Part shown: in pieces, positions 22,283-24,098 of the stretch | How positions within the stretch are numbered: position 1 is the first letter of the stretch | How the letters are laid out: every line of letters begins with the position of its first letter | From: a phage | NCBI GenBank assembly: GCA_021454005.1 | Contig: GCA_021454005.1_3939.1 | Strand: one strand, 5' to 3' | Length of the DNA: 44,706 bases | Notes under the pieces: generated by a model | Seen by the model: only the letters and a program-made list of their open reading frames with translations | The model's database searches: none | What the model was told of the DNA's origin: nothing | Translations under genes and position numbers: made by a program

Positions 22283-22656
22283 GGCAGATTTTTTATAAGG
22301 CTACTGCCATCCTTCCATACCCTACCTTACCACACCTAACCATACCTAACCAAACTACACCATACAATACCTTATTAAAAGACCCTCTTAAAGACCTTTT
22401 AAAAAGGTAAGTCTCATTTTAATGTAGCTGAGACTAACTACCCACACCTTACCTCACCTGACCTGACCTGACCATACCTAGCATTACCGTGCCACACCTC
22501 ACTTAAAAACCCTCTTAGAAGACTCTTAAGTGATGTAATCGGATTTTAATGTAGCTCCGATTAACTACCCGCACTTTACCAAACCTCACCCTACCCTACC
22601 AGACCTTACCTAACCGCGCCGTACCTCATTAAAAGACCCTCTTAAAGACCTTTTAA
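22283..22656. repeat. intergenic modular repeat array A (3 units)
   Basis: Hairpins at 22283-22308, 22410-22435, 22536-22563; G-depleted tracts at 22309-22374, 22436-22499, 22564-22628; second hairpin family at 22375-22402, 22500-22532, 22629-22656. Confidence 0.7.
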
Positions 22657-22678
22657 AAAGGAGCCTCCGAAGAGGCTA
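22651..22678 (-). terminator. rho-independent terminator (UUCG tetraloop) after 146-aa gene
   Basis: On - strand: AGCCTC-TTCG-GAGGCT followed by CC TTTTT; 10 nt after stop of gene 22689..23129. Confidence 0.5.
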
Positions 22679-22688
22679 CCTAGTCAAC

Positions 22689-23129
22689 TTAGAAAGGTTT
22701 TCTACGTTGCTTGTTAATGTTAGCTTTCATAGCAGCTAAATGGTTTTGCTGTTCAATTAGTCGTGAACGTTCTTGATGGCTAAGTACCATAGTGTTCACA
22801 TTCTCAATCGCTTGAGTGGCTTGCTTTAAAGCACGACCAATCTTACCAGACATTTTACGTTTTGCAATAGTTGCTTGATGCTTAGGTTCAACCACACGAT
22901 AACCAACACCCATTGAAGCAACCAGATAAATCTTCTCTTCTTTAAGAAGCTTCTCAATAAACTTCTCAAGTCGATTTAAGCGTGTAAGCGCATAAGCCTT
23001 CATTTCATCTTCGTACTTAACAATGTCACCTTGATAAGTTGGCTTCACAATACCTAAGAAGGTGTCCATCTCAGAATGTGATACAGTGTCACCGTAACTA
23101 AACTTTGCTGCTAATGCTTTTGTATTCAT
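22689..23129 (-). CDS. hypothetical protein (cassette gene 2)
   Basis: 146 aa ORF, basic C-terminus (KANINKQRRKPF); no motif recognised; between repeat arrays. Confidence 0.4.
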   Translation of the reverse strand: MNTKALAAKFSYGDTVSHSEMDTFLGIVKPTYQGDIVKYEDEMKAYALTRLNRLEKFIEKLLKEEKIYLVASMGVGYRVVEPKHQATIAKRKMSGKIGRALKQATQAIENVNTMVLSHQERSRLIEQQNHLAAMKANINKQRRKPF

Positions 23130-23131
23130 AA

Positions 23132-23719
23132 TTAAACGTTACCTTCTGAAATAACTTCTACAGAAAAACGACCAAAGCGTGGACGCCAATCACCTACACC
23201 ACAAAGGTTGCCAGCATTTTCCAGAACCATCAGAAGTTCCTCTCTGGTGATTTGCTCTTCATCGAACATCAAACCGAACTCTACAGACCAGTCACGGAAG
23301 ATTGGGCGGTAGCTCATAACTCGTGCTGTACCAATCTTAACAGACTTAGCATAGATAAAGTCTGGATTCTTAGCAAGTTCTTGTGGGTTTGCTGGACAGT
23401 TCTTGATAGTCATTGGGAAGACTACATCTGTCAGCATAATGGCTCGGTCAATTACCTTACCAAGTTTGTTAAGTTTTGCACCAGACTTGATACAAGCCTC
23501 AATCATCTCACCGTTCATAACAAAACCTAGCTGCTCATCGTAGTAACAGGAAGTTACTAGTTGGCTTTCTGCTAAGAGCGCATAGTCTTCGTCAGTCTTT
23601 TTACGTTTACTGGACAGAGACTTGTGATATTTTGTCAGAGGGTTTAATGGGTCTGACAACGTATCGTTATGGCTCAAGAAAGGACGAGTACCAGTGATTT
23701 TGATATTTAACAGTTTCAT
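23132..23719 (-). CDS. hypothetical protein (cassette gene 1)
   Basis: Start moved to ATG 23719, which has RBS GGAG 9 nt upstream (ORF-track start 23734 has none); no motif recognised. Confidence 0.4.
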
Positions 23720-23760
23720 AGCATTTAGCTCCACACTTTAGTTGATTGTTAAGTTGTTTG

Positions 23761-24098
23761 TAAAGAACCCTCAATAGAAGACTCTTTAGAAACTTGGTAG
23801 ATTTTTAACGTGGCTACTACCATCCACCCACACTTTGCCATACCTCACCGCGCCTTACCCGACCGGGCTGCACCTTGCCTTGCCAAACATCACTTAAAAA
23901 CCCTATGAGATACCCTATCGAGTATAATTTAAAGGCTCTTAAGTGATGTAAGTCTCATTTTAATGTAGCTGAGACTAACTACCCATACCCTACTTTACCT
24001 TGCCGTACCGTACTTTACCCGACCACACCGGACAATACTTAACCCTACCTCACCCGACCGGACATCACTTAAAAACCCTCTTAGAAGACTCTTAAGTG
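23761..24098. repeat. intergenic modular repeat array B (2-3 units)
   Basis: Second-family hairpins at 23761-23788, 23891-23945, 24066-24098; first-family hairpins at 23796-23821, 23951-23976; G-depleted tracts at 23822-23890, 23977-24065. 24066-24098 equals 22500-22532; 23951-23976 equals 22410-22435. Confidence 0.7.

Follow-up and report, generated by a model that had tools for sequence, protein, structure and literature searches.

The subject of this study is a family of hairpins located at positions 22283–23976 of a phage contig (NCBI GenBank assembly GCA_021454005.1, contig GCA_021454005.1_3939.1), of which the whole stretch of 44,706 nucleotides (hereafter the window) was analyzed. A first-pass annotation made from the sequence alone had described five copies with a conserved loop and compensatory stem changes. 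The window shows 98.9% identity over the region to Felixounavirus LF110P4 and 90–94% identity to many Escherichia, Salmonella, Shigella, and Citrobacter phages of the Felix O1-like type, and we are confident that it belongs to a Felix O1-like phage (Felixounavirus) carrying a type II Viral Interference Programmable Repeat (VIPR) locus of the SUSP1 clade. The hairpins are very probably the stems of the invariable 32-nt tails of VIPR guide RNAs (vrRNAs), that is, the structured 3' ends of five guide RNAs.

VIPR systems, CRISPR-like modules that silence DNA under RNA guidance, have been described in two preprints. According to the first (bioRxiv 10.64898/2026.04.26.720920), they comprise a minimal RAMP protein of ~20 kDa, Vipr, an accessory gene, vap, and flanking vrRNAs composed of 9–16 YNNGG repeats, in which GGY is conserved and NN is hypervariable, followed by an invariable 3' tail of ~40 nt with a pseudoknot in the SUSP1 clade. 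The NN dinucleotides pair with double-stranded DNA, with every third base skipped. The same study reports that the SUSP1 system silences a satellite phage, that ~100-nt vrRNAs co-purify with Vipr, and that hammerhead ribozymes are located between the vrRNAs in other VIPR types. The companion preprint (10.64898/2026.04.26.720927) presents a cryo-electron microscopy (cryo-EM) structure with 12 protomers, one per repeat, and a 3' pseudoknot that caps the RNA filament.

Organization of the locus

Repeat finding and a period-5 scan revealed two tandem arrays of composite units, three units at ~22283–22660 and two at ~23796–24100; period-5 GG arrays occur only at these two intergenic regions, both in the window and in the whole 86-kb LF110P4 genome. 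On the minus strand, which is the coding strand of all genes surrounding the hairpins, each of the five units (~127–175 nt) is composed of a long hairpin of a second family (HP2), 11–16 YNNGG pentamers, and the 32-nt tail. The order on this strand is a promoter, two HP2-vrRNA units, a further HP2, vipr, vap1, a terminator, and three HP2-vrRNA units, as listed below.

24132..24159, minus strand: sigma-70-like promoter TTGACA-16-TATACT (11/12 consensus match), just upstream of the first array
24062..24102, minus strand: HP2 copy 1, a G.U-rich hairpin of ~19 bp before vrRNA1 (minimum free energy −20.2 kcal/mol)
23951..24062, minus strand: vrRNA1, 16 YNNGG repeats (24062–23983) and 32-nt tail (23982–23951) with the hairpin at 23951–23976
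23887..23949, minus strand: HP2 copy 2, between vrRNA1 and vrRNA2, with an apical insertion of ~25 nt (minimum free energy −29.2 kcal/mol)
23796..23887, minus strand: vrRNA2, 12 repeats (23887–23828) and tail (23827–23796), hairpin GGTAG/CTACC, pseudoknot GUGG/CCAC
23756..23793, minus strand: HP2 copy 3, with the third variant of the stem, located after vrRNA2 and before the vipr ribosome-binding site
23132..23719, minus strand: vipr, encoding a minimal RAMP protein of 195 aa (the program-made open reading frame extends to a GTG at 23734)
22689..23129, minus strand: vap1-like accessory gene (146 aa), sharing 99% identity with the gene that adjoins vipr in SUSP1
22662..22677, minus strand: intrinsic terminator hairpin after vap, whose U-run doubles as the 5' arm of the following HP2
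22618..22659, minus strand: HP2 copy 4
22537..22628, minus strand: vrRNA3, 12 repeats, 11 of which provide guide NN; tail hairpin AATCGGA/TCCGATT
22495..22537, minus strand: HP2 copy 5
22410..22501, minus strand: vrRNA4, 12 repeats and tail, hairpin AGTCTCA/TGAGACT
22368..22409, minus strand: HP2 copy 6
22283..22374, minus strand: vrRNA5, 12 repeats and tail, hairpin GGCAG/CTGCC, pseudoknot AAGG/CCUU
22235..22282, minus strand: perfect 13-bp inverted repeat AAATAAGCTATAA/TTATAGCTTATTT followed by a T-run, surrounding the −35 promoter box of the next gene (21807–22190)

Judging from its sequence, the promoter at 24132..24159 is the likely start of a vrRNA1-vrRNA2-vipr-vap transcript. An 8-bp inverted repeat, GGTGAGTA...TACTCACC, at 24104–24143 lies over its −10 box and start region and is a possible operator. 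The inverted repeat at 22235..22282, which closes the second array, may both terminate the array transcript and gate the promoter of gene 21807–22190. No sigma-70 promoter was found inside the units by the promoter scan. The neighbors of vipr and vap are a ligase gene, a gene encoding a helix-turn-helix regulator, and genes of unknown function, with no cas genes or CRISPR (clustered regularly interspaced short palindromic repeats) array nearby. In the window as a whole, neither a CRISPR repeat-spacer array nor cas genes beyond the single RAMP were identified, the units being instead pentamer-built and 127–175 nt long; tRNA and transfer-messenger RNA genes were also not found. Rfam gave no window match at gathering thresholds, the sole match being at chance level (E 0.65) inside vap. 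GenBank records of related phages label the region at most as "repeat_region" or "terminator", these repeats are not described in the Felix O1 genome paper (PMC3185647), and no published Felixounavirus transcriptome was found in the literature.

Tail hairpins and their loops

The five inverted repeats reported by the first-pass annotation are present on the plus strand: GGCAG/CTGCC at 22283–22308, GGTAG/CTACC at 23796–23821, AGTCTCA/TGAGACT at 22410–22435 and 23951–23976, and (T)AATCGGA/TCCGATT(A) at 22536–22563. Substitutions between the stem types (designated A to D) keep pairing, as had been proposed, with three double changes between types B and C and one between types A and D; the A/D and B/C groups differ at every stem position. 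The loop, previously regarded as fixed, is identical (TTTTAATGTAGC) in three copies, whereas the other two contain related 16-nt loops, ATTTTTTATAAGGCTA and ATTTTTAACGTGGCTA. Since the variable loop positions covary with the four bases directly outside the stem, they point to a pseudoknot, and we consider an H-type pseudoknot highly probable, in which the tetranucleotide immediately preceding the stem is paired with the 5' portion of the loop. Folding energies of single copies, compared with shuffled sequences, gave z-scores of −3.5 to −3.8 for the 7–8-bp hairpins, but only −1.1 and −1.4 for the two 5-bp hairpins. Singly, the latter are therefore no better than shuffled sequence, so the case rests on comparative evidence.

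The intergenic position of the hairpins on the sense strand of the flanking genes would also suit rho-independent terminators or transcription punctuation between genes, and in phage ASO1B two homologous hairpin regions are annotated as "terminator" by TransTermHP/WebGeSTer. An intrinsic terminator is expected to have a G+C-rich stem and a loop of 3–8 nt, with a U-run after the stem. In the window, the stems are AT-rich and only 5–7 bp long, the loops comprise 12–16 nt, and no U-run follows; a terminator scan selected only the hairpin at 22677–22662 and none of the five (0/5). Moreover, copies of the tail found on Escherichia coli satellites (see below) have a separate canonical terminator directly after the tail, and this explanation accounts for neither the covarying pseudoknot, the phased pentamers, nor the target matches. 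We therefore regard a terminator function as very improbable.

Covariation across related phages and the selected strand

Covariation was examined in 32 distinct 42-nt tails from ~35 related phage loci, aligned without gaps, and the tested structure comprised a 7-bp hairpin and a 4-bp pseudoknot helix formed by the four pre-stem bases and, after a spacer, the first four loop bases. In this set, 94.0% of cells were paired, as compared with 27–38% when the 3' partners were slid by 1–3 columns, and changes on both sides were found in 9 of 11 pairs. The hairpin helix was 91% paired and the pseudoknot helix 99% paired, with three of the four pairs of the latter covarying (variants GUAG/CUAC, GUGG/CCAC, and AAGG/CCUU). 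None of 500 shuffles reached the observed covariation score, a control that ignores relatedness. When each distinct tail was taken once per locus carrying it, 93 of 95 stems kept pairing, including G.U pairs, the exceptions being a chimeric stem in LF110P4 and an A.C end pair in Moogle. Together with the co-purification of the orthologous SUSP1 RNA with Vipr and the pseudoknot resolved by cryo-EM, both reported in the preprints, this strong covariation bears out the earlier proposal of selection on a structure belonging to a protein-bound nucleic acid.

Such a pattern could in principle be an artefact of a few paralogous repeat types spread by recombination, without any selection on pairing. 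In favor of this, there are only four or five discrete stem types, hence few independent substitution events; the shuffle control ignores relatedness, and the chimeric tail shows that units recombine. The slid-partner control, however, retains relatedness and still yields the low pairing given above. In addition, intermediate states occur at a single pair (pair 16-31: G-C (4), G.U (3), and A-U (1) beside C-G (15)), the satellite lineage independently has another compensated stem, GUCG/CGAC, in its tail copies, and the SUSP1 pseudoknot is directly visible by cryo-EM (10.64898/2026.04.26.720927). An artefact of this type is barely conceivable.

The same data identify the strand. The G.U variant AATCGGA/TTCGATT would be an A.C mismatch on the plus strand, which indicates that the selected molecule is a minus-strand RNA. 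The first-pass annotation had left the choice between RNA and DNA hairpins open; the G.U variants decide for RNA, on a strand that it had missed. It was also incomplete in that the loop is partly paired in a covarying pseudoknot and the hairpin constitutes no more than the invariable tail of a guide RNA, next to a (YNNGG)n tract, and it had overlooked the partner protein encoded between the two arrays.

An alternative at the DNA level would interpret the hairpins as cruciforms or single-strand hairpins, part of a packaging site, of a replication origin with iterons, or of a G-rich segment prone to R-loops or G-quadruplexes. The arrays indeed adjoin ligase and polymerase genes, and (GGTNN)n could form two-tetrad quadruplexes or favor R-loops. 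This is nevertheless highly unlikely: G.U-only variants and the strand-asymmetric folding of HP2 (−15.7 kcal/mol for sense vs −9.2 kcal/mol for antisense) argue for an RNA of one strand, about half of the related phages are viable without the cassette (Vipr in 118 records vs 260 sharing the flanking region; also Salmonella phage S19cd and Felix O1), and the NN code matches foreign DNA.

Pentamer guide tracts and the Vipr and Vap proteins

The five tracts flanking vipr contain 11–16 YNNGG repeats each, in strict phase. In related phages, 80 distinct tracts of ten pentamers have a pyrimidine at position 1 in 99% of cases, G4 in 84%, and G5 in 98%, with an entropy of 1.9 bits at each of the middle NN positions. 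The (YNNGG)n tract adjacent to the hairpin is the informative part of the guide RNA. The NN order is CC CG GA AG TA AT CC GT CG AA AC AC AA AA AG AT in vrRNA1 and AC GC TA AA CT AG AG GA TT AA GC in vrRNA3.

The 195-aa open reading frame of the window shows 97% identity to SUSP1 Vipr, and the 146-aa open reading frame shows 99% identity to the SUSP1 gene next to vipr. The Vipr family comprises 519 detectable homologs and has no Pfam domain; the window protein displays the features of a ~20-kDa minimal RAMP with a Cas7-like fold, namely an RRM core, a G-loop, and a thumb. All eight residues that hold G1, G2, and Y3 in SUSP1 Vipr (H17, D177, R138, W178, E71, M72, R179, and C173) are found at the same positions, and both the window and SUSP1 proteins have V at the residue printed as T175 in the preprint. 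The vap1-like protein has no Pfam match and belongs to a PHROG family of unknown function; by analogy with the preprint, it would be an accessory protein.

A trinucleotide repeated 11–16 times with a period of 5 nt and bracketed by hairpins resembles TRAP sites, and a protein sponge or attenuator RNA, in which periodic GGU triplets would wind around a ring-shaped RNA-binding protein, as with TRAP/CsrB, and have no guide role, might be considered. We find this improbable in the extreme: the adjacent protein has a Cas7-like RAMP fold and not that of TRAP or CsrA, and hypervariable NN positions matching a particular mobile element under a single skip rule would be superfluous in a sponge. A TRAP/CsrB-like sponge, a Rho-loading (rut) site on the C-rich plus strand, and a G-quadruplex/R-loop origin were all rejected on the basis of strand asymmetry, the RAMP fold, and target matches.

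Guide matches in an E. coli satellite

BLAST, with the locus as query and 5,426 complete E. coli genomes as database, revealed a 68-nt match to one tail type with repeats in 60 chromosomes, located in an integrated element of ~11 kb that contains serine recombinase, tape-measure, baseplate, and HNH genes. This element is the satellite of the preprint. The five NN strings were then compared with 12 satellite elements overall (7 in the first scan and 11 in the final one) by the published rule, in which NN is matched and 1 nt is skipped. The best match of vrRNA1 (30/32) lies inside a satellite coding sequence in codon phase, with the skip on the third position, and that of vrRNA4 (21/24) is also inside a coding sequence. 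The vrRNA3 guide matches satellite intergenic DNA upstream of a gene encoding 235 aa (21/22), and the vrRNA5 guide (22–23/24) a promoter-like TTGAAA...TATATA upstream of the satellite's first operon. With 0, 2, or 3 nt skipped, scores did not exceed 21/32 and 18/24, which is background, and for the four matching guides the observed score was reached by none of 100 permutations of NN order. Under the 1-nt skip, four of the five guides match one ~11-kb satellite, two sites being coding and two promoter-like or intergenic, the latter of which fits silencing. The VIPR module of the window phage appears to be aimed at a parasitic satellite in E. coli. The targeted satellite gene is present in 366 of the 5,426 genomes at 75–100% identity, a spread representing diversity of the sort that an arms race would give.

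The satellite (loci L051–L062 of our set, e.g., NZ_CP017631.1 3239739–3252776) is integrated at several sites, including ymdF/wrbA, dinB, and mdtG; strains SLK172 and AR434 are two of its carriers. The predicted target sites are at 14800–14846 of L055 for vrRNA1, at 3542–3576 of L058 for vrRNA5, and at about 16863–16894 of L056 for vrRNA3. In seven loci bearing vrRNAs (L051–L057), one vrRNA each is accompanied by its own sigma-70 promoter, TTGACA-17-TAAGAT, and an intrinsic terminator; as tblastn revealed no Vipr or Vap homologs in these seven loci, the satellite vrRNAs are orphans. In one of them (L055, 12760–14650, minus strand), a satellite non-coding region of ~1.9 kb contains several motifs, such as GACCTCTTAAACGACC and AAGACTTTTAAGAGAC, that resemble the phage HP2 core (plus strand GACCCTCTTAAAGACC) in the opposite orientation relative to the vrRNA, and these could be sites of a shared DNA-binding protein.

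The second hairpin family, HP2

HP2 precedes each vrRNA, separates neighboring guides, and occurs once more before vipr, giving six copies in the window. What seems to be a conserved loop between variable stems (plus strand ACCCTCTTAGAAGAC) is, on the minus strand, self-complementary by way of G.U wobbles (GUCUU with AGGGU). Analysis of 68 distinct instances, to which the above folding energies refer as means, yielded a stem of ~18–19 bp with a loop of 3–5 nt and many G.U pairs, the share of which is 19–79% at positions 1–6 from the loop, 36% at position 8, and only 7% at position 7. The lower stem covaries among three stem types. The motif was not found elsewhere in the 86-kb LF110P4 genome, on which ground a phage-wide promoter or operator role of the HP2 loop was rejected. 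A scan of IMG/VR with a 16-nt HP2 pattern returned Felixounavirus contigs and otherwise mostly chance loci, and HP2 is absent from the satellite vrRNAs with their own promoter and terminator.

The main texts and figure legends of both VIPR preprints make no mention of HP2, RNases, or processing, and the terms "maturation" and "precursor" are also absent from those of the first (10.64898/2026.04.26.720920). HP2 resembles the hammerhead ribozymes of type I/V VIPR arrays in that it separates each guide from the next and the last one from the mRNA, but it has neither a ribozyme fold nor an Rfam match, and it would be their functional counterpart. A further parallel is the tracrRNA:pre-crRNA duplex cut by RNase III in type II CRISPR, which is likewise double-stranded RNA. 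An RNase III processing site comprises about two turns (~20 bp) of double-stranded RNA and is cut in vivo in dependence on rnc; the ~18-bp HP2 stem is at the short end for the E. coli enzyme. We tentatively propose, at somewhat less than even odds, that HP2 is a maturation signal cut by a host double-strand-specific RNase such as RNase III, which would free the vrRNAs from one another and from the vipr-vap mRNA. As a corollary, vrRNAs of the satellites and of phages lacking vipr (S19cd) would be free-riders, loading in trans onto the Vipr of a VIPR-positive phage that infects the same cell.

Distribution among related phages

Vipr was found at ≥90% identity in 118 phage records, all of Ounavirinae and all annotated as hypothetical, whereas at least part of a unit is matched in 230 records. 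Salmonella phage S19cd (L048, MZ150758.1 43164–50329) lacks vipr and vap, but two vrRNA units remain between its 127-aa and ligase genes, an arrangement suggestive of cassette loss via recombination between the arrays. In Felix O1 (L050, AF320576.1), only an HP2-like remnant is left. Elsewhere in the window, at 15097–17931, several families of diverged direct repeats (30–91 nt, 61–90% identity) are located within long plus-strand open reading frames and look like repeated modules of tail-fiber-type genes, as reported for Felix O1 gp76 and gp77.

Discussion

The locus analyzed here is the same system as the type II VIPR of SUSP1 (locus L022), carried by a sister phage. Beyond the near-identical Vipr and Vap proteins, the two share YNNGG vrRNAs, the same four tail types, HP2 spacers, the genomic slot flanked by the ligase and 127-aa genes, and the class of satellite target under the 1-nt skip. 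They differ in layout, with two upstream and three downstream vrRNAs in the window as compared with one and three reported for SUSP1, and in the NN sequences of their guides; there is no other difference of substance. By extension from SUSP1, each pentamer would be bound by one Vipr protomer, with GGY flipped out and NN presented, and the NN dinucleotides would read double-stranded DNA, skipping each third base, with binding leading to silenced transcription. The tail stem, serving as a structural cap, would be free to vary as long as it stays paired, with the pseudoknot and the A-rich part of the loop being constrained.

Several observations weigh against this interpretation. Besides the two 5-bp hairpins that do not stand out singly, one tail of the closest relative, LF110P4 (L043, ~27370–27400, orthologous to window 22410–22435), is chimeric and cannot pair, a left arm of the AATCGGA type being joined to a right arm of the TGAGACT type; this may have resulted either from recombination between neighboring units or from an assembly error across repeats. 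No promoter of its own was found for the three-unit array (~22283–22660), which is downstream of the intrinsic terminator. Regarding targets, none of the guides has a perfect one in the 12 satellite loci, the vrRNA4 site is out of wobble phase with the annotated coding sequence, and vrRNA2 shows no match above background (17–18/24) in these loci. Exact 1-nt-skip patterns gave no matches to the vrRNA1, vrRNA2, vrRNA3, and vrRNA4 guides in IMG/VR or to the vrRNA2 guide among GTDB representatives; evidently, the satellites are absent from these collections or differ by at least one base. Finally, the function proposed for the window phage is transferred from SUSP1, for which both sources are preprints.

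VIPR can be compared with two better-known systems. Class 1 CRISPR effectors are ribonucleoproteins with a Cas7 filament assembled on a CRISPR RNA with a 3' repeat hairpin or handle. In contrast to them, VIPR has no repeat-spacer array, Cas1/2, Cas5/6, or large subunit; three bases are sequestered in each 5-nt period, as opposed to one flipped base per 6 nt, its guide is made of non-contiguous dinucleotides, its cap is a pseudoknot, and, according to the preprint, it has no nuclease and acts by silencing. The complex of TRAP with the trp leader RNA (11 G/UAG triplets with 2–3-nt spacers) is similar in its conserved triplet, the period of ~5 nt, and the binding of each triplet by one protomer of an oligomer. 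VIPR differs from it in that the protein fold is another one, the assembly is a filament and not a ring, the spacers carry information, and the target is DNA.

The hairpin family is biologically remarkable, but the feature is the already described vrRNA tail of the VIPR system; since two 2026 preprints cover the near-identical SUSP1 and already explain it in that sister phage, its novelty is low. What our study adds is an independent, purely computational confirmation in a second phage, with covariation established on 32 tails rather than 5, the skip-one code, a satellite target, distribution figures, and HP2 as a lead on the maturation of vrRNA arrays; these additions leave the known picture unchanged. 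VIPR itself represents a recently reported means of programmable DNA recognition and has been proposed as an ancestor of CRISPR effectors.

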